A stretch of DNA of 32,427 nt from Candidatus Hydrogenedentota bacterium (GCA_029974275.1 JARKSN010000201.1:1-32427); one strand, 5' to 3'. Numbered from the stretch's first letter, positions 515 through 31,299 are shown. A program made the numbers and translations. Notes: generated from the letters alone by a model not told the origin.

Positions 515-567
515 ATCGACCATGATGTAGAGGGCCGATGTTTCGGCTGCCCCAAAGGAGGGGAACT

Positions 568-864: not shown

Positions 865-885
865 CGAGAAAACGATCCTGCCTGT

Positions 886-920
886 GCGCGGCCGCGTGAG
901 CGGCCGCGTTTGCTTTGTTT
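886..920 (+). terminator. Rho-independent terminator after flgM
   Basis: CGCGGCCGC-GTGA-GCGGCCGCG (9-bp stem, GNRA loop) followed by TTTGCTTTGTTT. Confidence 0.8.
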
Positions 921-998
921 CGGCAAATCATATGCCGGAGCGCCATCAGCCCCTTGGCCTCCCTCGAATGCCACGGCGCGAAAGAGACCGCCTCGCGC

Positions 999-5402: not shown

Positions 5403-5528
5403 CCCCTCTGCTCCTTCCACATGTGTTGAAGTTGCACTATACCCTACTCCCGCATGCTACATCAAAAAACCTGACGTTCCCCTCGTCCCCAATGCCGCAT
5501 CCGCGCCCTCTCGGCGCGTGTATCGGAA

Positions 5529-6032
5529 TCACGGCAAACGCAAGGTGACGGTCCGGTCCAACGCGTTCGAAAACACCTCTATCAGTTTGTCCTCGGGATC
5601 GATCCGCATCACCTGGAAATTTTCGAATTGCTCCCCCTCGCCAACATATTGCAGCTTGTTCCCTTTGGTGATCACTTGGGCGCGATAGCCGCCGTCGCGC
5701 CATGGAACGATCTTGAGAAGCCGTATTCCCGGGTCTTCCTGTCGCTTGGTCGCGCCGGACTCGACTGCCCCGCTCGCCAAGGTGAAGGGATTGCCCCGCA
5801 CCAAAGCGGCCACCTCTTCTGGACGATCGCGCGGCACGGTCGTATCCGGAAGCGGCGGTTGTTCCGCTTCCGGCACGGTGGCGCTGGGAGGCCGGGGCGG
5901 GGCCGAAACCTGTATCTCGGCGGGATTCAGCACGATGTACACCCGGTACCCAAGGAACGCCACCATGATCGCAAGGACCATGCGTTCCTTGTTGTCCCAG
6001 AGCCACTGTCCCGCTTTTCGAACTTTATCCAC
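5529..6032 (-). CDS. membrane-anchored pilus assembly protein, PilP/GspC-like by position and architecture
   Basis: 167 aa with GTG start. It has an N-terminal TM, a Pro-rich linker, 'RGNPF' (cf. the PilP RDPF motif) and a C-terminal beta domain 'YVGEGEQFENFQVMRID'. It lies between the PilO-like gene and the secretin. Confidence 0.6.
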   Translation of the reverse strand: MDKVRKAGQWLWDNKERMVLAIMVAFLGYRVYIVLNPAEIQVSAPPRPPSATVPEAEQPPLPDTTVPRDRPEEVAALVRGNPFTLASGAVESGATKRQEDPGIRLLKIVPWRDGGYRAQVITKGNKLQYVGEGEQFENFQVMRIDPEDKLIEVFSNALDRTVTLRLP

Positions 6033-6138
6033 CGCGTGTCCTAGTGCCCCGCTGGAAGGGGCGTATCGCCGATCCTGTTTTCATGCTCCACATAAGGCCT
6101 CCCCGCCCTCTCGGCGCGAAAGGCATGCGGCTTTCGCG

Positions 6139-7053
6139 CTAGAAAGGAAGCCATATCTTCCACCAGGGTTTTTGCCGCGCCCGCATCATGGCCTCGATCT
6201 GCGCGGCCCTTGATTCGCCCATCTGCGCCTGGACCGCCGCCACCGCCGAACCGGCCGTGCTTTCCGATGCGGCCGTGATGGGCGTTGAGGGCGGCGCGGT
6301 GTATTGCGCCACCGTCACCAACATCTGCACGTTCAAGTACGGGTCGGGATACCGCAGGGTCGCGTTGGTGACTTGGAGCGCATCCACGTTGAAATAGCGA
6401 TCTCGGGTTTTCAACTCGTTGAGAAACTTGGTCAGCGTGGCCAAGTTGGTTGCGAACGACAAGCCAACCGTCTGCATCCGCAACAGATTTCCTTCCTGCC
6501 GGGGCGGCCAGATGACGACGTCGCGGATGGGGTTGATGCCGTATTGCATGAGCAGGCGCGTCACGTTGATGCCGAAGCTCAACTGCCGCAGCCAGGCATT
6601 CACGTCCTCCCGCGACGGGGCCTGCCCCCGCGTCTGGTCTGGGGTGGGTACGCCGAACGTTGTGGCGGGAATGCTGATCCGCGCGTTGTATGCGTCCACC
6701 TGGAGTTGCTGCATCATTTTGTAGAACTGCCCTTCATAGTGAAACTTGGGCATCGTTTCCTCGGGCACTTCCTGGAACTCGGTCAACTTGGCCATGTCAA
6801 AAAACACGGCGCGCTCGTTGACTGCGTCGGCCCACGGCTGTATGGCTCCGCGCCACGCCGCGATCAACGCCGGCGGACGAACGCCCTTGAAAGCCGTTTC
6901 CAATTGCTTCAACTTCGTTTCCAGCCGTCTTTTGGTCTCTTCGTCCCGCGCGTACTGCTGAAGCCTTACCTTGAAGTAAAATTGATAAACCCCTCCCACT
7001 GTCCCCAGGAGGAGCAAGGCCACGATCAGGGTTATGACGTGCTGCCTCTTCAT
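6139..7053 (-). CDS. PilO/GspM-like (Amuc_1100-like) inner-membrane pilus assembly protein
   Basis: 304 aa: N-terminal TM, coiled coil, then a ferredoxin-like C-terminal region 'VGLSFATNLATLTKFLNELKTRDRYFNVDALQV'. Directly downstream of pilMN. Confidence 0.65.
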   Translation of the reverse strand: MKRQHVITLIVALLLLGTVGGVYQFYFKVRLQQYARDEETKRRLETKLKQLETAFKGVRPPALIAAWRGAIQPWADAVNERAVFFDMAKLTEFQEVPEETMPKFHYEGQFYKMMQQLQVDAYNARISIPATTFGVPTPDQTRGQAPSREDVNAWLRQLSFGINVTRLLMQYGINPIRDVVIWPPRQEGNLLRMQTVGLSFATNLATLTKFLNELKTRDRYFNVDALQVTNATLRYPDPYLNVQMLVTVAQYTAPPSTPITAASESTAGSAVAAVQAQMGESRAAQIEAMMRARQKPWWKIWLPF

Positions 7054-7165
7054 CCGGCCTCATCGGGACGGACCGCCCCGCTTTTCCGCCGCGCCGCGCC
7101 GTCCGCCCATAATTTCAGGTTCGTCTGCATTCGCTTCTCTACGCTGTCACGCTATTCCAGCCGGT

Positions 7166-9058
7166 TTATGGAAGCGTCACTTCGATGCGAAATGACGTCA
7201 CCGTTTGCCCTGCGGCATATTGCCACGGAGCGGGGGCGCCGCCAACGGACGCGCCGCCTCCCGAAACGTTTTGTGCGTTGTCAAGCTCGGTCACGGACAC
7301 CCGGTTGGCGAACGCGTCGTTGAAATCGACCTTGGGAAACGATTTCTCGAGCGCCACCTTGAAATCCGTCACGTCTTGCGGCGTCAGGGCGTATCCGGCA
7401 ATGATGATGCCATTGCCCGGCGGCGGGCCCACCGCCGCCGCCGTCTGCGTCGACGATCGCAACGAACCGGCGCCGGCCGCCGCCTGGGAGCCGCCGCCGG
7501 CCGGGGGCTGAATCCCCGGGAAGCCCGAACTGACGCTTCCCCCGACAGGAGCGCCGCCGCGTTGTTGCGGCATCGCTCCGATATGCGTGGTTTCGATCCG
7601 GCTTATCCACACCTTGTTGCCTTTGGGCCTGGCATTGTTGATCACGTTGAGATAATCCAGCCAGAACTTACGGTTCCGCCGCAATGAATCCAACGTGTCT
7701 AGTTTGTTTTTTTCCTCGGCCACCCGGTTTCGAGCGACATTGAGATCGGCCTCCGATCGCGATGTCGTCGCTTGGGTGTCGCCCGATTTCGCCGTCCCCC
7801 GCGCCAACGACGCGTCGTAGCCGATAATGGCCGTCTCCACCTGCTTGATGTACTCGCGAACGGCGGCGTTCTCCTGTTCCTTGATGGGGATGACCGACGC
7901 CACGATCAACACCAGCGCCGCCACCGACAGCAGCCAATAGAAAATCTGCTCGCGCTGTTTGGCCAAGGCCAATATCGCCGGGGGAATCAGGTTGATGGCA
8001 ATGGGAACGGCGTCCAGCGTGCGGAGGGAAAGGCCCAACGCCACCGCCGCGCGTTCCGGGTGTTCGTTCACCTCCTGGGCCGATGGCGCGATCGCCAATC
8101 CCGCGAGGGGCTGGGCAATGCGGACTTCCATGGCGAGTTGCCGCTCGAGGTATGGAATCATGTTGCGCAAACAGGCGCCGCCGCCCGTCACGACGACGCG
8201 CGTCACCGGACCGCCGCCGGGCTGCGACCGGAAAAACGAGAAACTGCGGGCGATTTCTCCCACCAGACGGCCCAGCACGTCGCCAATGACTTGGCCGCCT
8301 TTTCCGTCGTGTTGGGCGTCGCCCGTTGGAGCGAAACCGCGTTCGCGCTTGAGCTTCTCCGCCTCGTAAAACGTGGTCCCAAAGGCGTTCGCCAAGGCGG
8401 CCGTGACATCGTTGCCGCCGAGATTCACGCTGCGGACGAAACGGAACTGTCCCTCGCGCTCGATCACGATGTCGGTGGTGGTGGCGCCGAGATCGATCAG
8501 CGCAACGCTCTCGCCCTGTTCGCCGAACTCGCCGGTGTATTTGAGCCAGTTGTATGCGGCGAACGGACACACATCGACAATGTCGATCTGCCGTTTCGCC
8601 TCGCGGACGGCGTCCAGCCACTTGTCGACGACGTCGACCTTGATGGCGGCCATGAGCACGTCGTACCCGCCGGCCTCTGTCCGGCTCAGCACCTGATAGT
8701 CCAGCGCAATCTGATCCAGTCCGAACGGTATTTGTTGTTGGATTTCGTACCGGACGATCTGGGTGACCTTGTGTTCCGGCACAGGGGGCAAGGGGCGGGT
8801 GCGCACGAAAACCGACTGTCCCGGGACGCCGAAAACGACTTTGCGGGTGCGGTTTTTGGTTTCCTTGAGCAAGGCGGCCAAGGTTTCCCGGCGGGCTCGA
8901 CGCTTGGTTTCCTCGTCGGCGGAAGGCTCGACCACGTATTCGCGCTGAATATACCGGACCAGCTGGTATCCGGTTTTGGTATGCGCCAATTCGCACATAC
9001 GGATGGCGCTGGTGCCAATGTCGAGAACCAGTCGCCTCTTGCGTTTAACGCGGGCCAT
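7166..9058 (-). CDS. pilM: type IV pilus assembly protein PilM fused to a PilN-like domain
   Basis: Actin-like fold motifs LDIGTSAIR, YEIQQQIPF, IDLGATTTD, GGNDVT, AEKLK, VTGGG. These are followed by the PilN-type 'INLIP' motif (about 7982-7996), a TM helix, a coiled coil and 'WLDYLNVINNARP..VWISRI'. RBS GAGGTGAGG. Confidence 0.9.
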   Translation of the reverse strand: MARVKRKRRLVLDIGTSAIRMCELAHTKTGYQLVRYIQREYVVEPSADEETKRRARRETLAALLKETKNRTRKVVFGVPGQSVFVRTRPLPPVPEHKVTQIVRYEIQQQIPFGLDQIALDYQVLSRTEAGGYDVLMAAIKVDVVDKWLDAVREAKRQIDIVDVCPFAAYNWLKYTGEFGEQGESVALIDLGATTTDIVIEREGQFRFVRSVNLGGNDVTAALANAFGTTFYEAEKLKRERGFAPTGDAQHDGKGGQVIGDVLGRLVGEIARSFSFFRSQPGGGPVTRVVVTGGGACLRNMIPYLERQLAMEVRIAQPLAGLAIAPSAQEVNEHPERAAVALGLSLRTLDAVPIAINLIPPAILALAKQREQIFYWLLSVAALVLIVASVIPIKEQENAAVREYIKQVETAIIGYDASLARGTAKSGDTQATTSRSEADLNVARNRVAEEKNKLDTLDSLRRNRKFWLDYLNVINNARPKGNKVWISRIETTHIGAMPQQRGGAPVGGSVSSGFPGIQPPAGGGSQAAAGAGSLRSSTQTAAAVGPPPGNGIIIAGYALTPQDVTDFKVALEKSFPKVDFNDAFANRVSVTELDNAQNVSGGGASVGGAPAPWQYAAGQTVTSFRIEVTLP

Positions 9059-9435: not shown

Positions 9436-10869
9436 TCAGCGCCCGCTCGGCGCCTCAGCCTTCACATCGAGCGCACACCGCAGCCCGTAGTCCTCGCGCC
9501 GCGCATCCATCGTGTCGAAGAGACGTCGGGCGCAGCGCGCATCAAAGGCCTTGGTTCGAAACGAGCCGCCTCGCAGCACCCGGAACAATTGCCCATACTC
9601 TTTTTGGATCACTTGGTTGCCGGGGTATGCCTGATACCAACTCGATGTCCACTCCAGCGCATTGCCCGCCATGTCCATGCATCCATACGGCGAGACTCCG
9701 GCTCGAAAATGGCCTACTTCGAAGGTTCTGGCATTGGGCCCTCCTTCGACGTTGCATGCCGATGCCTGGAAGACGTTGCCCCAGGGGTATTCCCTTTCGT
9801 CCGTGCCGCGCGCGGCTTTTTCCCATTCCATCTCGGTGGGAAGACGTTTGCCCACCGCCGAAGCGAACGCGACGGCTTCGTTATAGGTTATCCCCGTGAC
9901 GGGGTGACTTCCTTTGCCCTGTCCGTATTGGAATGAAGGAAACACGGCCTTGAATTGTTCGTTGGTGACTTCGTATTTGTCGATGTAGAACGCCTCCACG
10001 AACACCTTCCGCTGCGGGGCTTCGTCTGGCGAACTGCTCTCTTCGCCCATGAGAAACTCCCCGGCAGGGACAAGCGCCATTCCCGGAGGAACCGCGCCCG
10101 GGGTCATCTGAACTTCAATGCTCCGGGTTTCGTTGGGTTGTAGCTGCACCACTTGGTCCGATTGGATGTAGCCCTTCGTATGCACCGTGATTGTGTAGGT
10201 TCCCGGCTTGAGCGTGATTTTCGTGGGGGTGCGGGCCTCCATCAATTGATTGTCCACCCATATGTTCGCGCCTGTAGGGACGGAATACACCTCGAGCAGC
10301 GCGCCCCGCGGCGTCAAGAGGTGGTTCTTCTGGTATTGGAAATCCTCCTCCACGCGCAGTTCCTGCTCGATCGGGTCATAGCCCTCGGCCGAGATGAGAT
10401 AGCGGTGATTCCCAATCGGCACGGGCGCTTTCGTCAACGGCGTCACGCCCAGCACCTTCTCGCCATCCAAAATGACTTTGGCGCGTTGAGGCGTTGAGTC
10501 CACGCTCAAATACCCTACCCGAGGCTCCATCTCGAACAGGAATTCCTGTGGCTCGACTTTGTTTTCAATGACGACGACTTGCCACGCATGCTTGAAGCCT
10601 TCCCGCTCCACTTCCACCAATGCCTGTCCGGGCATCAGGTCCGTGACCGTCAACGGCGTCACGCCGCGCACCACTCCGTTGATGGAGACGACCCCGCCGC
10701 GTTCCGGATTGGTTCGGATGGCGACGGTGATGGGGAGATCGCTTCTGGAGCCGCCGCATCCGGCCCATAGCGCAATGCCCGCAACGAGGATGACCGCGAT
10801 TACGCCCCATCGCCGTCCAGGCGCCGGCAAACGTATGTCTCGCCAACGATAATCGCATCCCGTATGCAA
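9436..10869 (-). CDS. PEGA-repeat + FGE-sulfatase (SUMF1/EgtB/PvdO-like) domain protein, probable lipoprotein
   Basis: Hydrophobic N-terminus ending in 'LWAGC' (lipobox-like). Three PEGA-like repeats (S.P.GA.V..DG...G.TP). FGE motifs VPAGEFLMG, FYIDKYEVTN, KRLPTEMEWEKAARG, DMAGNALEW, RVLRGGSF, GLRCA. Start uncertain (TTG). Confidence 0.85.
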   Translation of the reverse strand: MHTGCDYRWRDIRLPAPGRRWGVIAVILVAGIALWAGCGGSRSDLPITVAIRTNPERGGVVSINGVVRGVTPLTVTDLMPGQALVEVEREGFKHAWQVVVIENKVEPQEFLFEMEPRVGYLSVDSTPQRAKVILDGEKVLGVTPLTKAPVPIGNHRYLISAEGYDPIEQELRVEEDFQYQKNHLLTPRGALLEVYSVPTGANIWVDNQLMEARTPTKITLKPGTYTITVHTKGYIQSDQVVQLQPNETRSIEVQMTPGAVPPGMALVPAGEFLMGEESSSPDEAPQRKVFVEAFYIDKYEVTNEQFKAVFPSFQYGQGKGSHPVTGITYNEAVAFASAVGKRLPTEMEWEKAARGTDEREYPWGNVFQASACNVEGGPNARTFEVGHFRAGVSPYGCMDMAGNALEWTSSWYQAYPGNQVIQKEYGQLFRVLRGGSFRTKAFDARCARRLFDTMDARREDYGLRCALDVKAEAPSGR

Positions 10870-18093: not shown

Positions 18094-21000
18094 GTGTACG
18101 TGTCCAAACGCTCGGCCCCAAAGAAGGAAAAAGACACGCCGCAGGGCGCTTGTTCGCTCAAAAACGCCTTTACCCAGACGGAAACGTCCCGCTGGGAACG
18201 TCTTGTCGGTTCCGTGGCGCGCATGCAGGAGATGGTGTTCTCGCATTCCGCCGTCAGCCTCGACGCCATTGCCAGCGCTGTCGCGAGTCTGGGTCAGGAC
18301 TTGGAACTCGACGGCGCCCGGCTCTTCGAAATTCATGCCGTCCCTAACCATGGCGCCCTGACGGCGCTTCCATGCGTTGCGTGGGAGGCTCCCGGCGAGC
18401 ATGAAGCGCGCTGCATCGCGTACGAGAGCGAATTCCCGCACTGGCTTGCGTTGCTGCAACAAGGCGAGTCCATTGGCGGATCCGTTGCCCATTTTTCCGA
18501 AGCCGAGCAAGAGGCGCTTCGCGCAAAGGGCATCCGATCCCTCCTGCTTCTTCCCCTGAAATCGGGCCGTTTTCAAGGCTTCCTCGAACTGTGCGCGAGG
18601 CATTCGGCACGCGAATTCTCCGCTTGCGAACAACGCCTGATCGCTGCCGCGGCCTTGTCTCTCTGCGGCGCATTGTGTTGGCATGGCGCGGCGAGGGCGC
18701 ATGAAGACGAGCGCGCCGGCGTCGTGACGGGATTGGCGGGAATCGCCCAAGACATCGCCGATCGCAGACAGGAAAAGTGGCTGCAGGCCATTTGCCAGCA
18801 CAGCCCAGCGGGGATTGTTTTGCTGGAACTGCCGCCCCTGATGCGGTTTGCCTGGGTCAACCCGGCGTTCTGCGCCTTGGTGGGTTACACGGAAGCCGAG
18901 TTGCACCGCATGACCCTCGAGCAACTTTCGCATCCAGAAGACCTCGCGGCGGAAATGGTCGAGGGCCGCCGCGTTCTTCGGGGTGAAATCCCGTTCTTTT
19001 CGAGAGAAAAACGGTATATCCGGAAAGACGGCTCCCTCGTATGGGTCGATCTCACCACCACGGTCATTTGGGGCGATGACGGCTCCCCGCAGCATGCCAT
19101 GGGGGTGGTGCTGGACATCACGGCCCGCAAGGAGGCCGAGCGAACCCTCAAGAAAATGCAAGCCGATCTGGCCGAAGCGCAGCGACTGGCCCATGTGGGC
19201 AGTTATTGGGTCAGCAACGAGGAAAACCGTGTCGAATGGTCCGAGGAGACGTTCCGCATCTGCGGGCGCGATCCGGCCCTGGGTCCGCCCCTCGGCGATG
19301 AATTCCTGCGCATCGTGCACCCGGAAGACGTCGATATCGTGCAGCGTCTGATCCAAACAGCCCTGCAGCAGAAGACCTCTTTTGAGGGAGAATACCGCGT
19401 TGTGCGCCCCGACGGAGCCGTCCGGCATGTATGCAGCGCGGGAGGGCCTCTGTTCGATGATGTGGGAGCGGTGAAGGGACTGTTCGGAACGGTCATGGAC
19501 ATCACCGAACGCAAAGAGATGGAGCGGCGCCTACGCGAGAGCGAAGAGCATTACCGCCTTATCACCGAGTGCTTGACCGACACGATATGGCTGACGGACA
19601 TGGATTTCCGCGTGAGGTTCATCAATCCCGCCGGCGAACGGTTGCGCGGATACACGATGGAAGAACTGCGCGACTTGCCCTTGGAAAAGCAGCTCACCCC
19701 GGCATCGATGGCCAGAGTGCGAACGCTCTTGCGCGAGGAACTCCTCCCGGAACGCCTCGCCGACAAAAACGCCTCGATCCACTTCGCCATCGAACTCGAA
19801 GTGTGCAAGAAGGATGGTTCGACGTATTGCTCCGAGTTGACGGTGACCCTCCTGCGCGATGCCCACGGAACGCCGACGGGATTCCTGGGGACGGGCCGGG
19901 ACATCACCAAGCGCAAGCAGGCGGAAGAGGCGCTCCGCGCCACCCATGAACAGTTGAACGCCTTGATTGAGGAATCGCCCCTGCCCATCGCGATCCTGGG
20001 GCCTTTGGGCGAACTGCTCGTCTGGAACCCAGCCGCCGTCCAGTTGTTTGGCTGGAACGCGGCGGACGTGCGCCACGTCGATTGGTCGTTCATTCCCAGA
20101 GCCAAAATCGACGAATTCTGGGCGCTGCATCGCCGCGTCATGCAGGGCGAAACCTTGTCCGCCATCGAGGGAGAAGCGATCACCCGGGACGGTTCCTCGG
20201 TTCATGTCTCGGTTTGGGCGGCTCCGTTGCACAACGCTTGCGGCCAGGTTTCTTCGGTCATGGCCGTCATTGAAAACACGACCGCCCAGAAACAGGCCAT
20301 GGCGGTCCAGTTGCACGCATCGCGCATGGAGGCCACGGCGACCCTGGCGGGCGGCATCGCACACGATTTCAACAACCTCATGGTGACCGTGATGGGCAAC
20401 GCCGAGTTGCTCCGGGGCGATTGCATGGACAATCCCGCCGAGGCGTCTCTCATCGAAGGGATATTCGAGAGCGCGCGCCGGGCGGGGGAACTGGCCCAGC
20501 TCATGTTGGCCTATGCCCAAGGGGGCAAGTATTTCCCGCAGCCGCTCGACATGAGCGCCGTGGCCGACGCCGCCGTCAAGTTGCTGGCGCCCAACGCCGA
20601 AGCCCGCAACGTCCGCATCGACGCGCGGTGTGTCGAGGGGCTTCGCCCTGTTTTCGCGGATGCCATCCAAATGGGCATCGTGATTCACAACCTCCTGATG
20701 AACGCCATCGAAGCAATGCCCGAGGGCGGCGTCGCGACGATTTCGACGTCGAACGCCAGCATGCCCGATTCCTCCGACGAAACGCCCGCCGCCGTTTCGC
20801 GAGAAGCCATTCTGCTGTGCGTGGAAGACACGGGCATGGGCATGGAGGATGCCGTGCAGCGCCGCATGTTCGAGCCCTTCTTTTCCACCAAGTTCCAAGG
20901 CCGCGGCCTAGGCCTTGCCGCCGCGTACGGAATCGTCAAAAACCACAGCGGCCAGATTCAGGTCGAGAGCGCGCCGCATTGCGGGGCTTCTTTCCGGGTG

Positions 21001-21450
21001 TATCTGCCGGTTTATGAGCGCCCTTCCTTGGCCATGGCCCCTGTCGAAAGCCTGCGCGCCGCAGAAGCCGAAACGATCCTGCTGATTGACGACGAAGCGA
21101 TCGTGGTTCGGACGACAAAACTCATGCTGGAACGGCTGGGCTACAAGGTGTTGACGGCGCGCAACGGACTCGAAGCCCTGCAACAAGCGCACGCCTACGA
21201 GGGCGACATTCACCTGGCGCTGCTCGACTTGGCCATGCCCGAAATGAACGGCTACCAGGCGTTCCCCTTGCTGCGTCAGGCACGACCGAACATGCGCATC
21301 ACGATCTGCAGCGGTTTTGATATCGACCCTTCGGTGCAGGCGCTGTTGGACGCAGGAGCGCGGGCATTCATCCGCAAGCCGTTTACGCTGAGCACGTTGA
21401 GAGAAAGCCTCGAACAGACGCGCCTCTCCTGCGCCACGGAATGGGAATAA
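18094..21450 (+). CDS. cytoplasmic hybrid sensor histidine kinase/response regulator (GAF-4xPAS-HisKA-HATPase-REC)
   Basis: PAS/PAC ends LDITARK, MDITERK, RDITKRK, ENTTAQK. H-box GGIAHDFNN, N-box NLLMNAIEAM, G1 EDTGMGM, F-box FEPFFSTK, G2 GRGLGL. REC motifs LIDDE/LLDLAMP/IRKP. No TM segments seen; GTG start uncertain. Confidence 0.93.
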   Translation: MYVSKRSAPKKEKDTPQGACSLKNAFTQTETSRWERLVGSVARMQEMVFSHSAVSLDAIASAVASLGQDLELDGARLFEIHAVPNHGALTALPCVAWEAPGEHEARCIAYESEFPHWLALLQQGESIGGSVAHFSEAEQEALRAKGIRSLLLLPLKSGRFQGFLELCARHSAREFSACEQRLIAAAALSLCGALCWHGAARAHEDERAGVVTGLAGIAQDIADRRQEKWLQAICQHSPAGIVLLELPPLMRFAWVNPAFCALVGYTEAELHRMTLEQLSHPEDLAAEMVEGRRVLRGEIPFFSREKRYIRKDGSLVWVDLTTTVIWGDDGSPQHAMGVVLDITARKEAERTLKKMQADLAEAQRLAHVGSYWVSNEENRVEWSEETFRICGRDPALGPPLGDEFLRIVHPEDVDIVQRLIQTALQQKTSFEGEYRVVRPDGAVRHVCSAGGPLFDDVGAVKGLFGTVMDITERKEMERRLRESEEHYRLITECLTDTIWLTDMDFRVRFINPAGERLRGYTMEELRDLPLEKQLTPASMARVRTLLREELLPERLADKNASIHFAIELEVCKKDGSTYCSELTVTLLRDAHGTPTGFLGTGRDITKRKQAEEALRATHEQLNALIEESPLPIAILGPLGELLVWNPAAVQLFGWNAADVRHVDWSFIPRAKIDEFWALHRRVMQGETLSAIEGEAITRDGSSVHVSVWAAPLHNACGQVSSVMAVIENTTAQKQAMAVQLHASRMEATATLAGGIAHDFNNLMVTVMGNAELLRGDCMDNPAEASLIEGIFESARRAGELAQLMLAYAQGGKYFPQPLDMSAVADAAVKLLAPNAEARNVRIDARCVEGLRPVFADAIQMGIVIHNLLMNAIEAMPEGGVATISTSNASMPDSSDETPAAVSREAILLCVEDTGMGMEDAVQRRMFEPFFSTKFQGRGLGLAAAYGIVKNHSGQIQVESAPHCGASFRVYLPVYERPSLAMAPVESLRAAEAETILLIDDEAIVVRTTKLMLERLGYKVLTARNGLEALQQAHAYEGDIHLALLDLAMPEMNGYQAFPLLRQARPNMRITICSGFDIDPSVQALLDAGARAFIRKPFTLSTLRESLEQTRLSCATEWE

Positions 21451-21479: not shown

Positions 21480-21556
21480 TGGTACCGGGAAAGGGGGTCG
21501 AACCCTTGACCTCTGGATCCACAATCCAGCGCTCTAACCATCTGAGCTATCCCGGC
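21480..21556 (-). tRNA. tRNA-His(GUG), CCA encoded, atypical acceptor end
   Basis: GCCGGGATAGCTCAGATGGTTAGAGCGCTGGATTGTGGATCCAGAGGTCAAGGGTTCGACCCCCTTTCCCGGTACCA. Stems are GCCGGGA/TCCCGGT, GCTC/GAGC, CTGGA/TCCAG around TT-GTG-GA, and AAGGG/CCCTT with a TTCGA loop. Confidence 0.95.
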
Positions 21557-24292: not shown

Positions 24293-27200
24293 TCAGGCTC
24301 CGCCAAGAAAATCAAAGCTTATTTTTTTCTGGATGTTGGCGATCTGCGCAAAGGCCTCCCGGAGCAGCGTCTCCTCCATGTGCGTCAACGCCTTGGGGTT
24401 GATGGCATTGTCGGGCGGCAGATCTTTTGCGAGGGCGTTTGCCTGGTGTTCGAGGCGAAGGCGCATCAGGCAATCGTAAACTTGGATCGCTTCATCCTGG
24501 AGGGATTGGCGCAGCACGCCCATTTCCATGAGCGCGCGCATGCGATCCACGGTGTTGCTTTCCGCGACGTCGTGACGAAGCGCGTAAAGTCGCGCGAAGT
24601 TCACGACCGGCATCATGCCTTCCTTGATGTTGAATGTGGGCGAATGATCCTTGCCCGATTCCACGACAATCTTGCCGAAAAATCCTATCGGGCTTTTGTA
24701 CTGCAAGGCGTATTGCGCGTAGTGCAGCAGGAACGCGGGTTCCGTCTTGATCTCCGCCTCGATATGGCGGCGGAGGAGACCCGCATAGCTCTTCTCGCCG
24801 TGCACGACGCGGAAATCGAAAAACGTCATGGTATCCAGGATGCTTTGGGGTTCCGGAGCCCCAATCCAGTCGGAGAAATACCGTTTCCAGACTCGAAGCG
24901 GCTGACACCACCTGGGGTTGGCCGCCATGATGTTTCCCTCGCAACGGGGATAGCCCGCGCGTTCGAGCCAGTTGCATACCAGATCGCCAAGTCGGTTGAA
25001 GTACTCCTGCGCCGCGGACAGCGACGCGTCTTCCACGTCGTCGAAAACGATGGCGTTGTCCTGATCGCAGGCCAATGTCTGTTCCTCGCGTCCGGCGCTT
25101 CCGAGGGCGAGAAATGCGAAGCGAGCCGGAGGAGGCCCGATTTGCAGCATGGCGAGATGGATGAGTTGGCGCACAATGGCATCGGAAAGCGCGGTGATCG
25201 ATCGGGTGATGGTGCGTGTGCGCGCGCCGCCCACGATGAGGGCGTTTACCAGCCTTGGCAGGTCGCGGCGGAAGGAGGCGATCTCTTCCGGGGACGCGGC
25301 TCGCCCCACTTCCTGGAGCAACACCGCGAGGGTGTAGCGGTGGAAGTGAAGCAATTCGCGAATGTCGGCCATCCCGACAATCTGCCCCGCGTCGTCGCGC
25401 GCGACCAGATGGCGAATCTTTCGTTCCCGCATGACCAGGATCGCCTCGTAAACGGCGCACCGGTGCGAGATGTACACGACAGGGGAACTCATCACCCGGA
25501 ACAACGGCTCGTCAGGCGACAGGCCGGCGCCAACGACGCGTTCGCATATGTCCCGCTCGGTTACGATGCCGGCGACTTCATCTCCGGAGTTCACCAGAAT
25601 GGCGGAAGCGCCGTGCGCCGTCAAGCGTTCCACGGCGCGCGCAATTGGGTCGTGCATGTCGCAGGAAAGAACCTTCGTTGCGCAGGCAGAGACCGGCTCG
25701 TGAAGAAACATGAGCGAGCTTTGGAGTTCGGCAATCAAATTTTCTTGCTCGTTTTCGCGGCGTCTGCGTCCGTGATCGCGCAGATCGTGCGCGGCTAGGT
25801 CGCGCGCGGCCAGAATGAAGCCGGTTCGCCCCGCCGAAGAGACCGGGGTGATGGTGATGGCCGCCTCGACCGTCTCGCCTTCCTTCCGGCGCAGGAGCGT
25901 CTCGCAGAGCGGCGGGATGGGGCGCCCGTCGGATATCCGACGCACGATGCTGTCGGGCCCCGAGTCGTCCGGGAGGAGGTCGGCGACGTCCAGCAACGCG
26001 AATTCCGCCTCCGTGTAATGCAGCATCTCGGCCATTGTTTTATTGGCATAGGTGCAGCGTCCGTCGAGCACCATGAGTATCCCGTCCGTAGCCGCTTCGG
26101 CCAAAGTCAGGTACTTCTCATGCGATTCGCGCAGTTCGTCTTCGACATAACGCCGGCGCCGTTCGATGTTTAGGGTTTGAAGCGCCACAAAGGCAAGAAG
26201 CAGTATGCTGAGAATGGTAATGCCCAAGGAGACGCGGACCATTCGCGCCTCCATGGCCGCGATTTCTTTTTGCACGTCTTCCGTGTAAAGCCCCGTTCCA
26301 ACAATCCATCCCCACGGGAGGAATTTCTTGATGTAGGACTCCTTGGGAGCCAGCCTATTCGGGTCGTCTTTCCACTGCCAGACGTATTCGACATACGCGG
26401 CGTCCTGCGTCTTGAGGGCATTGACGAACTCGACGAAAATGGGGTCGCCGCGTTGATCCCTGAAATCGGTGAGATCGCGTCCGTTGAGTTCAGGGCGGTA
26501 CGGGTGGGACACCATCCGCGGATGGGTGTCCATCAGCCAGAAATAATCCTTCCCCTCTTTTCCATAGCGAAGGCCCTGGATGCGCTTGACGGCGGCCTCC
26601 TGCGCTTGTTCGAGCGACAGGCGTCCGCCACGCGCCTCATGGTCATATTCCGCCAGAATGCCGCACGCTATGTTGGTCAGTTCATGGATCATCTCGCGTT
26701 TGCGGTCCAGAAGTCTGGCCTCGAAATTCGGGATAATCACCTGATAGATGGCGAATATGAACAGCGCCGTGGCGAGGAACGTTGGAAGGACGATGCGGAG
26801 CAGAAACGAACCCCATCGCGCGTTGCTTTTTCTTTCTGGGACATCCCGCTTGGTTGATTCCTGGAGATGTGCGGAACTCTGGGCGAGGATGGAATCCCGA
26901 AATTGCTTCCAAAGCGGCGTGGGCATATCTATCCCCGCTTCGCAAAGCCCTGGGCGGGACAGGGCGTGGAAATCGCTGCCGGCGCTGATGCACAGCTGGT
27001 GTTTTTTCGCCAGTTCGATGAGGGCGTCTCGGGTTTCGTCAGAATAGCCGCAGTAGATCGCCTCGATGCCGTCGAGGCCCTGGCTTTTCAGATCGCACAG
27101 GAGCGCGTCAAGGGACTCCCAGGAAATATCCTGCCCCGGAGCGATGGGGTGCGCCAGCACCGCGATGCCGCCTGCTGCATGGAGCAGAGCAATGGCCTTG

Positions 27201-27604
27201 GCGATGGGGAGCAACGCGGGAGGCGCCCCCCGCCATGCATCCTCGCCCCCCGGGCGAAGCCACGTCTCTTGAACGGTGCCGGGGGGAGGCTGGCAACTGG
27301 CCGTGCGCTGGTTGCGAAGCGCCTCAAGCAGCGGCGCGTTTGTTGGATCAAAGCCGTATCCGAGCAGGTGCCGTTCGGCTCCATCGGAACCGAGGACCGT
27401 GATCTCGACTCCGGTGATGCACCCGATGCCCCTGCGCGCCGCCGCCTTGCGAAATGCTTCCGTGCCGTCACAGGAGTCGTGGTCGGTCAGGGCGGCGACG
27501 CGAACGCCATCTTCCGAAAGCAAAACGGCGAGCTCCTCGGACGAGAGCCCGCCGTCGCTCAAATTTGAGTGGCAATGAAAATTGACCCGCGTTTGCATGG
27601 TCAC
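24293..27604 (-). CDS. PHP - TM - sCache_2 - TM - PAS - CBS pair - DUF294 nucleotidyltransferase/DUF294_C fusion protein
   Basis: PHP motifs HCHSNLSDG, ALTDHD, GVEIT, HLLGY, VLAHP, GLDGIEAIY, AGSDFH. TM1 about 26805-26730. Cache motifs YFWLMD..PRMVSHP, YVEYVW, KESYIKKF.PWGWIVGTGLY. TM2 about 26235-26180, then PAS and CBS (GIVTERDI, VMSSP, IRHLV). NTase motif GSAGREEQTLACDQDNAI, GNIMAANPRWC, FFDFRVVHG, FNIKEG..PVVNFARLYAL. The GTG start overlaps the actP stop (alternative ATG 27598). Confidence 0.9.
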   Translation of the reverse strand: MTMQTRVNFHCHSNLSDGGLSSEELAVLLSEDGVRVAALTDHDSCDGTEAFRKAAARRGIGCITGVEITVLGSDGAERHLLGYGFDPTNAPLLEALRNQRTASCQPPPGTVQETWLRPGGEDAWRGAPPALLPIAKAIALLHAAGGIAVLAHPIAPGQDISWESLDALLCDLKSQGLDGIEAIYCGYSDETRDALIELAKKHQLCISAGSDFHALSRPGLCEAGIDMPTPLWKQFRDSILAQSSAHLQESTKRDVPERKSNARWGSFLLRIVLPTFLATALFIFAIYQVIIPNFEARLLDRKREMIHELTNIACGILAEYDHEARGGRLSLEQAQEAAVKRIQGLRYGKEGKDYFWLMDTHPRMVSHPYRPELNGRDLTDFRDQRGDPIFVEFVNALKTQDAAYVEYVWQWKDDPNRLAPKESYIKKFLPWGWIVGTGLYTEDVQKEIAAMEARMVRVSLGITILSILLLAFVALQTLNIERRRRYVEDELRESHEKYLTLAEAATDGILMVLDGRCTYANKTMAEMLHYTEAEFALLDVADLLPDDSGPDSIVRRISDGRPIPPLCETLLRRKEGETVEAAITITPVSSAGRTGFILAARDLAAHDLRDHGRRRRENEQENLIAELQSSLMFLHEPVSACATKVLSCDMHDPIARAVERLTAHGASAILVNSGDEVAGIVTERDICERVVGAGLSPDEPLFRVMSSPVVYISHRCAVYEAILVMRERKIRHLVARDDAGQIVGMADIRELLHFHRYTLAVLLQEVGRAASPEEIASFRRDLPRLVNALIVGGARTRTITRSITALSDAIVRQLIHLAMLQIGPPPARFAFLALGSAGREEQTLACDQDNAIVFDDVEDASLSAAQEYFNRLGDLVCNWLERAGYPRCEGNIMAANPRWCQPLRVWKRYFSDWIGAPEPQSILDTMTFFDFRVVHGEKSYAGLLRRHIEAEIKTEPAFLLHYAQYALQYKSPIGFFGKIVVESGKDHSPTFNIKEGMMPVVNFARLYALRHDVAESNTVDRMRALMEMGVLRQSLQDEAIQVYDCLMRLRLEHQANALAKDLPPDNAINPKALTHMEETLLREAFAQIANIQKKISFDFLGGA

Positions 27605-29526
27605 TTCGTCTTGGCAGTCCTCTGGTTGGTCATCAACGACACCAGCACCAGCGTGATGAAACTCAACGGGATGGATACGAACCCCGGATTGTCAAAAGGC
27701 ACGGGCGCGGTCAGCGGGTCCCATCCATATTGCTTATACATGCTCGGCGACAAGAGGATAAGCGTCAACGCGGTGAGAATGCCAACGACGATGGAGGCCG
27801 TGATGCCCAGCGCCGTCGTCTTCTTCCAGAACAGGAGCATGATGATCGCCGGCAGGTTCGCGGAGGCGGCCACGGCAAAGGCTAACCCCACCAGGAAATT
27901 CACGTTCATCCCTTTGAATAGAATTCCGAGGAAAATGGCCAGAATTCCGATGACGAACGCGGCGATCTTTCCCGCGCGCACCTTCTGTTTCTCGTTCATG
28001 GTCATCCCGGCGAAGCGGTCCATCAAGTCGTGCGCCACCGCGCCCGAGGCGGCCACGATCAGGCCGCTGACCGTTCCGAGCACGGTCGCGAACGCAATGG
28101 CGGAAATGATGGCGAACAAGAGCGTCCCGAAGGACTTTGCCAGCAGGGGAGCGGACATATTGTTGTCCGTGAGATTCACGACGCCGTTGACCATGGCGCC
28201 AAGCCCCATGAACAAGGTGAGGATATAGAAGAAGCCGATGGCGGCAATGGCGACAATGGTTGATTTGCGGGCGCAGGCCGGGCTCGGCACCGTGTAGTAC
28301 CGGATCAGGATATGCGGCAAGGCGGCCGTGCCGCAGAAGAGCGCCAGCATCAGCGAGATGAAGTCAAGTTTTTGGAGCGGCGTGCTGCCTTCCAGCTTGT
28401 ACTTCAGGCCCGGACGCAGGATCAGGTTGCCCGGGGTAAGGTTCGGGAAGTAGACCGTCACCTTATCGCCCGCCGCGTCGGCGAATGTCGCCGAAGCCCA
28501 GCGGCGTATGAGGGTGTCCTTGTCGCCAACCAAGGCAAGAAAACGGAAAGGCGAGATGCTTCCTGTAGCGGTTTCCGGCCCTGCGCGGCCTTGGAGAGAT
28601 TCGATATTGCCAACGTAGCGGAGTTGATTCTGCGGCGACGCAGGCGCTCCGTTGATGATCTTCTCTCCGGACGCGCCGACGGCAACCCACTGGGTCTCCA
28701 GGAACATGGGAACGCCGTCTTTCGTGTCCAGCTTCCACCACGAGGTCTGGCCGGCGTGGGCGAGTTTCACCAGAGACGCCTTTGGCGCCTTGGACTCTTG
28801 CCGCTCGACGATCTGCCACGCGGAATCGGCGGGAACCATCGCCCCCCCTTGATCCACCGCCGCCAACGCCTGGGGCTCGTGGAACGGCGTCTTTCCTTCT
28901 TTTCCCGGCGCCATCTGAGCGGGCGCGGTGGAAAGGCCGCGCACACAAACGGCAACGACCAGGATCAACGAGAAAATAATGAGCATCCCCCCTTTGAGGA
29001 ATTGCACATACGTGGTCGAGGTCATGCCGGCGGTGGCCACGATGGTGATGACGATGGCCCCGACGATGATGACGCCGACCGCGTGCGGCATGCCTAGCAG
29101 CGGCTCCACCAAGACGCCTGCCCCAACCATCTGCGGTATCAGGTAGCAGACCGAGACAATCAGCGTGCTCACCGCGGCGGCCAGTTTTATGCCCCGCGAG
29201 TCAAACTTGGAGTCGAGCGCGTCGGTGAATGTGTACTTTCCGAGGCGCTTCATCGGTTCGGCCACAATGAACAGCGCCACAATCCACCCCGCCAGGTATC
29301 CGATGGAGTAGAGAAACCCGTCGTATCCCACGGTGGCGATCATGCCGCAGATACCCAAAAACGATGCGGCGGACAGATAATCTCCCGCGAACGCGATGCC
29401 GTTAACCGACCAGTGGATGGAGCCGCCGGCGGCGTAGTAGCCGCTGGCGGATTTAGTGCGACGCCCCAAATAGAACGATAGGAAAAGAACCAGGCCAACG
29501 AAGAGGAGGAACACTATAATAGCCAT
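27601..29526 (-). CDS. actP: cation/acetate symporter ActP-like (SSS family) with a large hydrophilic insertion
   Basis: YYAAGGSI, NGIAFAGDYLSAASFLG, GYDGFLYSIGYLAGW, AEPMKRLGKYTFTD, YLIPQMVGAG, GTAALPHILIRYYTVP, AFATVLGTVSGL, AVAASANLP. ATG 29526 with RBS AAGGAGG, overlapping the upstream stop (TAATG). Confidence 0.92.
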   Translation of the reverse strand: MAIIVFLLFVGLVLFLSFYLGRRTKSASGYYAAGGSIHWSVNGIAFAGDYLSAASFLGICGMIATVGYDGFLYSIGYLAGWIVALFIVAEPMKRLGKYTFTDALDSKFDSRGIKLAAAVSTLIVSVCYLIPQMVGAGVLVEPLLGMPHAVGVIIVGAIVITIVATAGMTSTTYVQFLKGGMLIIFSLILVVAVCVRGLSTAPAQMAPGKEGKTPFHEPQALAAVDQGGAMVPADSAWQIVERQESKAPKASLVKLAHAGQTSWWKLDTKDGVPMFLETQWVAVGASGEKIINGAPASPQNQLRYVGNIESLQGRAGPETATGSISPFRFLALVGDKDTLIRRWASATFADAAGDKVTVYFPNLTPGNLILRPGLKYKLEGSTPLQKLDFISLMLALFCGTAALPHILIRYYTVPSPACARKSTIVAIAAIGFFYILTLFMGLGAMVNGVVNLTDNNMSAPLLAKSFGTLLFAIISAIAFATVLGTVSGLIVAASGAVAHDLMDRFAGMTMNEKQKVRAGKIAAFVIGILAIFLGILFKGMNVNFLVGLAFAVAASANLPAIIMLLFWKKTTALGITASIVVGILTALTLILLSPSMYKQYGWDPLTAPVPFDNPGFVSIPLSFITLVLVSLMTNQRTAKTK

Positions 29527-29819
29527 TAGTGGGTGCCCTCCTTGGAAGCCTGAGCGTCCAATTCCTGTTCTTTCCGGCTGCACATGACGGTATAGATAAG
29601 CGCGAGGATCAGGGCAAAGACAATCAGTCCAAACCCATACATGACGGCGACGTTCATTCCTAGGGCCACTGGCTTTTCCATCGCAACGGGTGAGAGTACG
29701 TTTTGCACGACAAATCCGCCATACAAAAGCGCGTAGACGAGAAACATCCAGACGCCTAGCCGCATCTTGTACGATGCGGCATGATCCTTGCCCGACTGCG
29801 CGGCGGGTTCATGTAACAT
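29526..29819 (-). CDS. DUF485 (YjcH-like) small two-TM partner of ActP
   Basis: 97 aa with two hydrophobic helices (LGVWMFLVYALLYGGFV; MNVAVMYGFGLIVFALILALIY), immediately upstream of actP as in yjcH-actP operons. RBS AAAGGTGG. Confidence 0.88.
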   Translation of the reverse strand: MLHEPAAQSGKDHAASYKMRLGVWMFLVYALLYGGFVVQNVLSPVAMEKPVALGMNVAVMYGFGLIVFALILALIYTVMCSRKEQELDAQASKEGTH

Positions 29820-30161
29820 GCGATCCACCTTTCTTGTTGTTCGCGCGTGAGCGTGCGCAACTTGTCCCGGCCCAACGGGGATTAGGCCGCCGCCGACTCT
29901 TCGAAGCGACTACCGTCAGTTGTAGCCCTTGTTTACTGCGTGCTTTATTTGGCGCGGGAGTTCCCCGAATCCGATGGCATGGGAGCAAGGCGACAGCTTG
30001 CCCGCCTTCCGCGCATCGTCTCAAGAACCCTGCCGGGGCGCCCCTCGCCCCCCCCTTTCGGCGCTTCAGAAAGCGCCTGCGGCGCAAGGGTTGCTCGCCC
30101 CCAGCGCCGGCCTCCGTTCCGCCCGGCGGCGTCAGTTTGCCATAGCGCGTTGCAATACGCA

Positions 30162-30191
30162 AGCGTTTGTTTGGACAGCGTTTGTTTGGCC
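30162..30191. repeat. 15-bp tandem direct repeat in the divergent intergenic region
   Basis: AGCGTTTGTTTGGAC followed by AGCGTTTGTTTGGCC (14/15 identical). Confidence 0.8.
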
Positions 30192-30506
30192 AAAATTCTT
30201 CGAGGCATTTTGATCGGGAATGGATGCGGTGCGGGGTTGTTGGCACGGACGGGCGATTCGCGGATGCGCGAATCACGGCGAACTCCGCAACGCCAATCGC
30301 CTGGATTTTGGACGCCATCCGGCGCGGCACATGGCGACCGCCACCCGCGCGCTTCTTGCCCGCCGCAGACAACAACGCAAAACCGGGGACGAAATGACGA
30401 AATTTGTCACGCAAGAACCATTCTGGACGCATCTCCTCGCGTCCGGCCCCGAAAATCTTTATGGCATCTTCTTTATTTTGAAGCCTTTATGTTCACTGCG
30501 CGGGCA

Positions 30507-30521
30507 TGGCACGTTTATTGT
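30507..30521 (+). promoter_or_regulatory. candidate sigma54 promoter of the pilin gene
   Basis: TGGCAC-GTTTA-TTGT: perfect -24 element, -12 element GT instead of GC, about 80 nt upstream of the ATG. Confidence 0.4.
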
Positions 30522-30602
30522 TCTTCCTCTCGCGATGTAGAAGGCGGCGTACGGGCAACGCAAGAGATGATCGGAAATGCCAAACGGCGCGGGAGAGGCG
30601 GC

Positions 30603-31091
30603 ATGCGTAAACACGACGGATTCACCTTGATAGAATTGATGATCGTGGTCACCATCATCGTTATCGTTGCCGCCGTGGCCATACCGAACATGGTCCGTTC
30701 GCGCATGAGCGCGAACGAGGCCAGCGCGGCGGGAGCCATCCGCACCATCTCGACAAGCGAATCCTGCTTCCAGTCCGCATGTTTTTTTGACAACGACGCC
30801 GACGGAAGGGGCGACTACGGGACGCTCGCGCAGTTGGCGAATCCAGACGGGGCAGGGCTTACCCCGCCGTTTATCGATCAGGTGCTGGGCAGCGGCCAGC
30901 GGCAGGGCTATGTGTACGCGATCGCCATTGTCATGGGAACGGCAGCGGCAAACCCCGCCTTCGCATGCACCGCGACGCCTCAAACCTCGCATCTGACCGG
31001 ATACCGACAATACTTCGTGGATGAAACAGGGGTCATTCGGTTTACAGCAGACGGGACGCCGGCAACGGCGGCTTCGCGTCCTTTGAGCTGA
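30603..31091 (+). CDS. type IV pilin-like protein (prepilin N-methylation/cleavage motif)
   Basis: MRKHDG|FTLIELMIVVTIIVIVAAVAIPN, a class III signal peptide with E5 and P22. Also 'ANEASA...RTI', 'GYVY', 'GYRQYFVDETGVIR'. 162 aa. The upstream extension in the ORF track is not supported. Confidence 0.92.
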   Translation: MRKHDGFTLIELMIVVTIIVIVAAVAIPNMVRSRMSANEASAAGAIRTISTSESCFQSACFFDNDADGRGDYGTLAQLANPDGAGLTPPFIDQVLGSGQRQGYVYAIAIVMGTAAANPAFACTATPQTSHLTGYRQYFVDETGVIRFTADGTPATAASRPLS

Positions 31092-31299
31092 CGTCCTACG
31101 CCAGAACGCGGTGTCCATCACGAAACAACCATCGGGCTGCGGGATGACGATGGCTGGAAGGAGCGGCGAGAGACCTCGCCGCTCCGGCGCTTTTGGGGGA
31201 GAATGGGCGTGTCTCAAGGTCCGGCGCATTGCGTGGCGCGATCCTGCTTTTCATTGGGATTTGCTTCGTGTATAACAGAGACACAAGGAGGGCAAGGCC

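Follow-up and report, generated by a model that had tools for sequence, protein, structure and literature searches.

A membrane-bound DUF294 nucleotidyltransferase with a Cache sensor and a fused PHP domain, encoded beside an ActP-type symporter in a Candidatus Hydrogenedentota bacterium

Introduction

Many bacteria carry genes of the DUF294/COG2905 family in their operons for acetate and short-chain-acid uptake, and these genes have no recorded biochemical function. What a predicted nucleotidyltransferase (NTase) does beside a transporter is also the question raised by a locus on the 32,427-nucleotide contig JARKSN010000201.1 (GCA_029974275.1), which belongs to a metagenome-assembled genome (MAG) of a Candidatus Hydrogenedentota bacterium and is referred to below, at its full length, as the window. 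On its minus strand, at 24293-29819, three genes follow one another without gaps, encoding a small DUF485 protein, an ActP-type symporter and a protein of 1103 amino acids (aa), here called the receptor, in which a DUF294 module is joined to a PHP domain and a Cache sensor. Soluble DUF294/COG2905 proteins in symporter operons are known; the membrane-bound, Cache-sensing, PHP-fused form is new. A preliminary description of the locus had proposed reversible nucleotidylation, plausibly acting on ActP/DUF485 or turning over a nucleotide signal; its computable parts, namely architecture, ligand pocket, fold and gene linkage, are borne out below, and the function itself is discussed as a prediction.

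Architecture and distribution of the receptor

Along the receptor, Pfam matches and transmembrane segments (TM) follow the order PHP - TM - sCache_2 - TM - PAS - CBS pair - DUF294 - DUF294_C. Hydropathy gives two such segments (Table 1) with Lys/Arg-rich flanks on the cytoplasmic side, and because the outer flanks of the pair are rich in these residues, the Cache domain is placed outside and both enzyme domains in the cytoplasm, as had been proposed. The sequence AAGGTGG forms a ribosome-binding site upstream of the DUF485 ATG at 29819, the DUF485 stop overlaps the actP ATG at 29526 (TAATG), and the receptor has two candidate start codons, a GTG that overlaps the stop of actP (GTGA) and an ATG two codons on (aagTGAccATG at 27604-27596). 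Gene order, overlapping stop and start codons and domain architecture were all recovered as described earlier from open reading frames (ORFs), Pfam and the sequence, and the residues of the Pol-beta-type motif and the PHP metal ligands are all present.

As the window is a 32-kb MAG contig, an assembly chimera or annotation artefact had to be considered. Of 8000 candidates scored in a search across 5.8 billion clustered proteins, 1032 were relatives at E<=1e-3, and PHP, sCache_2 and DUF294 occur together in 115 of 120 relatives among the matches listed. Three of the five exceptions were checked and gave no firm case of a second, PHP-less architecture: P0005 and P0111 retain a truncated PHP match, while P0092 has 227 unassigned residues before the Cache domain and no PHP match at E<=0.01. 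At least 579 species genomes encode a relative of the receptor (579 of 600 pattern matches confirmed, in contigs representing one genome per species). Near-identical DNA is present in wastewater, digester and activated-sludge metagenomes of several studies; no RNA datasets are among the public runs listed for it. Contigs from two other studies span 25899-27282 and 25926-27647 with no indels, both crossing the PHP/TM1 junction and the latter also the actP/receptor boundary, and among the strain differences listed for the receptor gene 18 of 29 are synonymous. The same domain order was found in 60 full-length relatives from other species genomes. Because relatives exist in species genomes and the bridging contigs are free of indels, we consider the chimera refuted, with next to no chance of the fusion being artificial.

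For the locus analysis 80 relative loci were retained, all from MAGs and none (0/80) from a cultured isolate. They are labelled as Aminicenantes/Acidobacteriota, Chloroflexota, Armatimonadota, Verrucomicrobiota, Kiritimatiellia, Planctomycetota, Spirochaetota, Gemmatimonadota, Sumerlaeota, Hydrogenedentota, NC10 and others. The window protein was aligned with the 60 full-length relatives from these loci (n=61), and the conservation counts below refer to this set.

Output module and sensor

The C-terminal part of the receptor matches Pfam DUF294 with 157.5 bits (cut-off 21) and DUF294_C with 140.6 bits (cut-off 22.5), with the CBS pair directly upstream of the NTase core. Its active-site motif reads G835-S836-x-G838-R839-x-E841...D847-Q848-D849, the individual residues being kept in 56-61 of 61 relatives and the motif as such in 60. 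Compared with the Protein Data Bank (PDB) by sequence, the module gave CBS matches only when a single sequence was used, and spurious matches to designed repeats when a profile was used. An AlphaFold2 (AF2) model of residues 759-1103, built with 45 sequences, reached a predicted local distance difference test (pLDDT) of 93 and a predicted template modelling score (pTM) of 0.91, and was compared with 48,161 representative chains by VIA-align. The best match was the N-terminal domain of GlnE (1v4a; Z 27.9, 304 residues, 2.7 A), followed by DrrA (6yx5_B; Z 26.1, 293 aa, 3.2 A) and the GlnE adenylylation domain (3k7d_B; Z 26.1), all three of which we take to be enzymes placing AMP on protein tyrosines. 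The next match spanning both sub-domains, the aminoglycoside nucleotidyltransferase ANT(4'), has Z 8.8, and the small-molecule-modifying ANT/AadA enzymes among the listed fold matches lie at Z 6.5-8.8. Foldseek returned the same entries in the same order, with E-values of 1.8e-8 to 3.5e-7 and then 1e-2. A weak sequence match of the receptor to GlnE (NCBIfam PRK14109, E 3.3e-5) points the same way, and a survey of HEPN domains, in the text available, groups DUF294_C with the C-terminal domains of GlnD/GlnE. The GlnD/GlnE-like nature of the module, suggested earlier, is thus supported by the model as a GlnE/DrrA fold over its whole length. Since the top fold matches are the protein adenylyltransferases GlnE and DrrA, we prefer protein nucleotidylation as the predicted output over a nucleotide messenger or RNA tailing.

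The periplasmic domain of the receptor matches 4k08 (E 9.2e-34) and PscD (5g4y, E 9.9e-31) in the PDB. PscD binds glycolate, acetate, propionate and pyruvate; in the available text of its structural description, propionate is contacted by Tyr90, His103, Tyr143 and Lys156, with Trp92 and Trp145 stacking on either side and Phe126 behind it, and Adeh_3718 (4k08) was crystallised with acetate (PMC5062169). In the HMMER alignment to 5g4y, Y354, W356, H367, F390, Y407, W409 and K421 of the receptor correspond to PscD Y90, W92, H103, F126, Y143, W145 and K156, so that all seven pocket residues are identical to those of PscD, and each is kept in 61/61 relatives. Because all seven contact residues are identical, a C2/C3 carboxylate is the predicted Cache ligand, and this assignment, residue by residue, is well founded; the C2/C3-carboxylate pocket is in this way complete, in keeping with the carboxylate input of the preliminary description. 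NCBIfam MctS, a monocarboxylate sensor kinase model, also matches at 286-482 (E 5.5e-21), below its cut-off.

In the AF2 model, a linker at aa 244-264 with pLDDT <50 precedes TM1, and TM2 is followed by RRRR and is part of one long helix (441-503) running into the PAS domain. CBS domains provide adenine-nucleotide input, and in the G-h-h-T-x-x-D motif of the receptor's pair G679 is kept in 60/61, T682 in 59/61 and D685 in 57/61 relatives.

PHP domain

The PHP domain finds 3e0f, Cv1693 (2yb1), a 5'-3' exoribonuclease (7ug9) and 9etk in the PDB with E-values from 1.7e-20 to 2.4e-15. Its nine metal ligands (H10, H12, D17, H42, E67, H79, H152, D211 and H213) are each present in 61/61 relatives. 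Judged by the alignment, then, the PHP, Cache and NTase sites are all under selection.

The surroundings of the metal site are less like those of the nearest enzymes. The text available on RNase AM gives the metal ligands, an active-site sulfate bound by Arg201, and an insertion domain (107-176) whose Arg107, Arg110, Arg141 and Phe161 hold a 5'-phosphorylated nucleotide (PMC9410882). Between the aligned blocks, the corresponding region of the receptor (aa ~102-133) counts 32 aa vs 75 aa in Cv1693; it is 28-47 aa long in most PHP-type relatives, as we call those with the fused domain, and 2-7 aa in 9/61, and its pLDDT falls below 50 at 104-128 in the full-length model. At the position equivalent to Arg201 (H152+3), V, I, L, H, A and M lead, and Arg is outside the six commonest residues (n=61). 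The NCBIfam scores stay below cut-off (NF041577, 115.2 vs 400 bits; NF047791, 101.8 vs 375 bits). The chemistry appears conserved and the nucleotide clamp not, which would fit a different, perhaps bulkier, substrate.

The same genome encodes a stand-alone TrpH/YciV-like PHP protein of 295 aa (C78:784-1668, minus strand; hidden Markov model (HMM) E 3.8e-46), which makes the fused domain an extra copy. A search of the ESM Atlas with the PHP part, excluding DUF294 clusters, gave best values of 0.78 and 0.76, below the useful level. In the AF2 model the domain is tethered by a low-confidence linker of ~20 aa outside the path that runs from Cache via TM2, PAS and CBS to the NTase. The earlier proposal that the Cache domain sets the balance of both activities is therefore unsupported for PHP, which is more likely constitutive, so that the level of modification would follow the NTase.

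Classical DUF294 loci and the hydrolase partner

For comparison, nine loci with soluble DUF294 proteins were taken from plasmids of Proteobacteria. Their order is (acs)-DUF485-ActP or DUF4212-SSS, then the soluble DUF294 protein and a 3'-5' exonuclease, often with overlapping genes, which is the arrangement given earlier for classical yjcH-actP loci. RNase_T was confirmed by Pfam in the three exonucleases tested, and an HMM seeded with these three (E<=0.01) found a DEDDh gene in 8/9 classical loci, corresponding to 5/6 non-seed loci, and none in L084. Six-frame translation of the 80 PHP-type loci yielded 10,190 ORFs, none of them matching the same model (E<=0.01); the locus in the window has no match either, and the model does detect a single DEDDh gene at another place in the genome to which the window belongs. 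Conversely, a PHP HMM matched 0/9 classical loci. The classical loci are few and the loci interrelated, so this complementarity (0/80 vs 8/9) is a clear pattern rather than a statistical test. As a comparison of gene content it supports the replacement of the neighbouring DEDDh exonuclease by PHP, as had been suggested for this locus.

In a tree of the NTase module, a branch with support 94/95 separates 45 PHP-type sequences from the nine classical ones, as could be the case if the fused form arose once. The PHP-type side mixes sequences from different phyla, and the window's sequence groups there with Aminicenantes; this, together with the presence of a true DUF294 in only 6/135 genomes of the window's phylum, points to lateral spread of the module.

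Little is reported on the classical genes. In the text available of one study, COG2905 is cofit with the small subunit of the neighbouring symporter and is guessed to be needed for expression (Price et al., 10.1101/072470). According to the available part of a preprint of September 2026, PP_0353/PP_0354 of P. alloputida are among the genes most dependent on MxtR/ErdR, their deletions grow more poorly on propionate and that of PP_0353 also on pyruvate, and its authors, drawing a parallel to the uridylylation of PII, propose that a protein is modified and call for protein chemistry (10.64898/2026.09.07.749794). Our literature searches found no biochemical study of DUF294, COG2905, PF03445, PA3233 or a yjcH/actP-linked nucleotidyltransferase, and turned up no characterised protein with the receptor's architecture, in line with the preliminary description.

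The alphaproteobacterial classical loci carry long DEDDh proteins of 562-695 aa (L085:7932-9920, L088:6950-8638, L089:7192-9279, L092:9559-11284), of which at least that of L085 starts with two hydrophobic segments. Because the long gene is preceded by a response regulator in L085 and L092, and by a sensor kinase in L092, the classical hydrolase half seems to be under its own signal control.

Linkage to the transporter genes

Among the 80 loci, 62 hold a strong ActP homologue. Its gene lies upstream of the receptor in 56 of them, in the same orientation in 48 and divergently in eight, and downstream in the other six, convergently in four and in the same orientation in two. Another SSF symporter with a small gene stands beside the receptor in five of the 18 remaining loci, and most other loci without ActP have short flanks. 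In the 55 loci that have >=3 kb of sequence on each side, ActP is adjacent in 45, 6 kb off in one and replaced by another SSF symporter in five, with four having none, so that a symporter is adjacent in 50/55. Because adjacency is kept through four arrangements, it speaks for a functional link and against mere inheritance of the gene order, and the linkage to an ActP transporter gene read from the single locus extends to the family. Clustering of the ORFs revealed only symporter, receptor and DUF485 as conserved; the next cluster comprises 14 loci, and its representative is antisense inside the receptor gene. In a single case, L047, a 650-aa calcineurin-like metallophosphoesterase (208-2160, plus strand) lies 174 bases upstream of the PHP-type receptor.

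The window's symporter is 65-85% identical to those beside receptor relatives. It stays below the NCBIfam cut-offs for MctC (439.6 vs 670) and ActP (394.8 vs 750), its match being split by an insert between TM6 and TM7, where the loop measures 205 aa, compared with 47 aa in one classical ActP and 63 aa in another. The insert, of about 140-150 extra aa and inferred to be periplasmic, contains the conserved motifs SWWK, INGAPAS and RPGLKFKVE and has no sequence match in Pfam or the PDB. Of the 62 symporters linked to PHP-type receptors, 58 have it, and neither of the two classical ActPs does. A homologue of the insert occurs in 21/135 genomes of the window's phylum and a true DUF294 in 6/135. 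Co-evolution of insert and receptor was dropped as evidence of contact, because the insert does not depend on the receptor in this phylum. Distant versions of the insert are also found in genomes without any DUF294.

The DUF485 protein carries at its cytoplasmic N-terminus, in PHP-type loci, the motif MLHEPAxxxGxDPAxxYKxRLG (29750-29819), in which, among 36 sequences, M1 is invariant and H3 and D12 are kept in >=90%; the motif is absent from four classical DUF485 proteins. This makes the N-terminus a candidate docking or modification site. A complex prediction of ActP, DUF485 and receptor aa 262-482, run without controls, scored 0.00 (mark 0.32) and is counted neither way.

The window's genome has three SSF symporter genes, and a DUF294 neighbour only beside that of the window. 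A canonical acetyl-CoA synthetase (AcsA) was sought in it with TIGR02188 and not found, the best match reaching 185 bits vs a cut-off of 725.

Mechanism and alternative explanations

We propose that the receptor is a one-component transmembrane member of the DUF294 (COG2905) family. A C2/C3 carboxylate would bind the Cache domain outside, and the signal would pass via TM2 and the continuous helix 441-503 to PAS, CBS and NTase; the CBS pair would add adenine-nucleotide binding inside, both inputs tuning the NTase. The NTase would transfer a nucleoside monophosphate (NMP), probably AMP or UMP, to a protein hydroxyl, and PHP, tethered to the cytoplasmic end of TM1, would hydrolyse the protein-NMP phosphodiester. 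Through modification of DUF485/ActP, uptake would track both external substrate and energy state, and the overall logic would resemble that of GlnD, with a writer and an eraser wired directly to a sensor outside the cell. In our judgement, reversible protein nucleotidylation by such a carboxylate-gated writer/eraser has about an even chance of being correct. The scheme in full, in which a one-component receptor carries out acetate-gated reversible AMPylation or UMPylation of the neighbouring transporter complex with a PHP eraser replacing DEDDh, is offered as a tentative possibility. The transporter complex is the simplest target, because no other gene is conserved nearby, and as a choice of target DUF485/ActP nevertheless stays rather doubtful.

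Several observations weigh against this proposal. The cytoplasmic N-terminus of DUF485 has no invariant Tyr, Ser or Thr, and the Tyr before its TM1 is Phe in some sequences. No symporter lies near the receptor in the well-flanked loci L012, L033, L071 and L074, which means that the target need not be a transporter. The nearest PHP enzymes, the pAp phosphatase Cv1693 and RNase AM, act on nucleotides or RNA 5' ends, and the RNase T-like partner of the classical systems, taken with these PHP relatives, fits nucleic-acid or nucleotide substrates equally well. The full-length model, given its pTM (Table 1), does not fix how PHP and NTase are placed towards each other. Deletions of classical genes had weak or no phenotype on acetate in the parts of the reports available (including 10.64898/2026.09.07.749794). 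Our literature search also found no measured nucleotidyl transfer, hydrolysis, ligand binding or target for DUF294 proteins.

These points bear on other explanations as well. The DUF294 module might make a nucleotide or oligonucleotide messenger on a carboxylate cue, to be degraded by PHP or DEDDh, as in GGDEF-EAL tandems; the partner hydrolases do come from families cutting nucleotides or short RNAs (TrpH/RNase AM-type PHP, RNase_T), and a sensor-rich chain joins a synthase-like to a hydrolase-like domain. We regard this as improbable, as the module matches GlnE/DrrA over ~300 residues at Z values far above those of the ANT/AadA enzymes among the listed matches, the loci share no conserved gene for a receptor or effector of such a signal, and the PHP domain is without the 5'-phosphate-nucleotide clamp of RNase AM. 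Relatives among exoribonucleases, which both partner hydrolases have, would also suit an NTase that tails, or a hydrolase that trims, an operon mRNA or small RNA and thereby sets symporter expression. This is very unlikely in our view: poly(A) polymerases and CCA-adding enzymes are outside the top fold tier, terminal uridylyltransferases appear only at Foldseek E ~0.2 (TM-score 0.18-0.20), the membrane anchoring of both domains would be odd for an RNA enzyme, and Rfam matched only a tRNA, at 21483-21556 on the minus strand, with no structured RNA within the operon or next to it.

It is similarly hard to credit that PHP is no eraser at all, serving in the removal of pAp or another by-product or in a structural or regulatory role while the NTase acts alone. 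Its position on a low-confidence linker outside the signalling path would agree with this, and the stand-alone TrpH-like protein means that PHP paralogues have housekeeping roles, but the nine ligands are invariant, the fusion persists across phyla, and PHP and DEDDh are complementary. For these three reasons a shared, required phosphodiesterase role is the best explanation, and the fusion of the hydrolase partner argues for phosphodiesterase activity as an obligatory half of the system. Returning to reversible protein nucleotidylation, the receptor narrows the DUF294 problem on two further sides: its input can be named from residues as a likely C2/C3 carboxylate, and its output module is, by predicted fold, a protein adenylyltransferase. 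With a named input, a fold-assigned output and a fused hydrolase, the writer/eraser model becomes directly testable. If true, nucleotidylation would join the outputs of bacterial transmembrane receptors, as an output that is neither phosphorylation, methylation nor a cyclic nucleotide; it would explain post-translational tuning of carboxylate uptake and compress the 'GlnD-GlnK-AmtB' logic into a receptor and a transporter.

Features and neighbouring genes

Table 1. Coordinates of the three genes and their parts in the window (AF2, AlphaFold2; ORF, open reading frame; TM, transmembrane segment)
Feature	Position	Strand	Basis
DUF485 ORF	29526..29828	(-)	ORF call; start ATG 29819
DUF485 (YjcH-like) small membrane protein, 97 aa	29526..29819	(-)	Pfam DUF485 39.6 bits, cut-off 28
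actP ORF	27601..29583	(-)	ORF call; start ATG 29526
ActP/MctC-like sodium:solute symporter, 641 aa	27601..29526	(-)	Pfam SSF 230 bits, two stretches
Segment between TM6 and TM7 of ActP, longer by ~140-150 aa than in classical ActP	28384..28941	(-)	Alignment; six TMs precede
Receptor ORF	24293..27604	(-)	ORF call
PHP-TM-sCache_2-TM-PAS-CBS2-DUF294-DUF294_C receptor gene, 1103 aa	24293..27604	(-)	Pfam; AF2 full-length mean pLDDT 80.6, pTM 0.47
PHP domain, aa 1-243, TrpH/YciV/Cv1693 type	26876..27604	(-)	Pfam PHP 9-74; PDB matches
TM1, aa ~265-290	26735..26812	(-)	Hydropathy 268-286
Periplasmic sCache_2, aa 293-452	26249..26728	(-)	Pfam 300-451, 120.7 bits; PDB 4k08, 5g4y
TM2, aa ~455-478	26171..26242	(-)	Hydropathy 458-476
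Cytoplasmic PAS, aa 496-604	25793..26119	(-)	Pfam PAS 7.3e-11 (498-602), PAS_9 2.6e-10
CBS pair, aa 640-757	25334..25687	(-)	Pfam CBS 1e-15, two stretches from 643
DUF294 Pol-beta NTase core (aa 781-920) and DUF294_C helical domain (aa 956-1099)	24308..25264	(-)	Pfam; AF2; fold search

A scan for promoters and terminators gave counts not above those of shuffled sequences, with no minus-strand promoter match upstream of DUF485. The ~760 bases that separate DUF485 from the probable start of a gene of the prepilin type (N_methyl; 29820-30580) show no promoter-like or Rfam match, and the minus-strand ORFs there (29809-30432 and 30459-31229) have no family match. Elsewhere in the window, 18094-21450 (plus strand) encodes a hybrid histidine kinase of 1118 aa that has a receiver domain and four or more PAS domains and is followed by the tRNA gene, and 9436-10869 a PEGA and FGE-sulfatase protein of 477 aa. 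At 2370-9058 (minus strand), genes for a TPR-secretin of 1016 aa and a PilM-like protein of 630 aa point to a cluster for a type IV pilus or for type II secretion.

Comparison with known systems

Among the closest known systems are the COG2905 proteins, with the order cNMP-binding - CBS pair - DUF294 - DUF294_C and an adjacent RNase T-like exonuclease, such as PP_0354/PP_0353 of P. alloputida, Pflu5625 of P. fluorescens and the PA3233-PA3235 cluster of P. aeruginosa. Their module is homologous to the CBS-DUF294-DUF294_C part of the receptor (24-34% identity to the plasmid-borne members), and both kinds of system stand beside DUF485/ActP or DUF4212/SSS symporters and have a partner from a phosphodiesterase family. 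In contrast, the receptor is membrane-bound and has sCache_2 and PAS in place of the classical cNMP-binding domain: the cNMP_binding model had no Pfam match in it at E<=0.01, the region being occupied by PHP-TM-Cache-TM-PAS, and Cache and PAS HMMs built from the PHP-type family had no match in the nine classical loci. The hydrolase is a fused PHP domain in the receptor and the product of a separate DEDDh gene in the COG2905 systems.

GlnD pairs an NTase with an HD-domain uridylyl-removing activity, and GlnE has in common with the receptor module the fold of NTase core and helical C-domain; no GlnD structure came up in our searches. In GlnD and GlnE, writer and eraser stand on one chain under sensor domains, and by analogy the predicted logic of the receptor is alike. 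The erasers differ, being HD in GlnD, a second NTase domain in GlnE and PHP here, as do the sensors, with Cache/PAS/CBS instead of ACT domains in the receptor, which is moreover membrane-anchored. The AMPylation domain of Legionella DrrA/SidM also matches the whole module in fold, with 15% identity in the structural alignment and no relation at the level of sequence; DrrA, however, is a secreted effector acting on host Rab GTPases and has a separate de-AMPylase, whereas the receptor is fused to PHP.

On the hydrolase side, RNase AM (YciV/TrpH) and the 3',5'-nucleotide bisphosphate phosphatase Cv1693 have the barrel and the nine ligands in common with the receptor's PHP domain, in which the 5'-phosphate-nucleotide clamp of RNase AM is reduced. 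On the sensor side, the sCache_2 domains of PscD (5g4y), McpP and Adeh_3718 (4k08) resemble the receptor's Cache, with E-values of 1e-31 to 1e-34 to the solved domains. MctS and the sCache_2 sensors, however, signal through a histidine kinase or an MCP signalling domain, while the output domain of our receptor is a nucleotidyltransferase.

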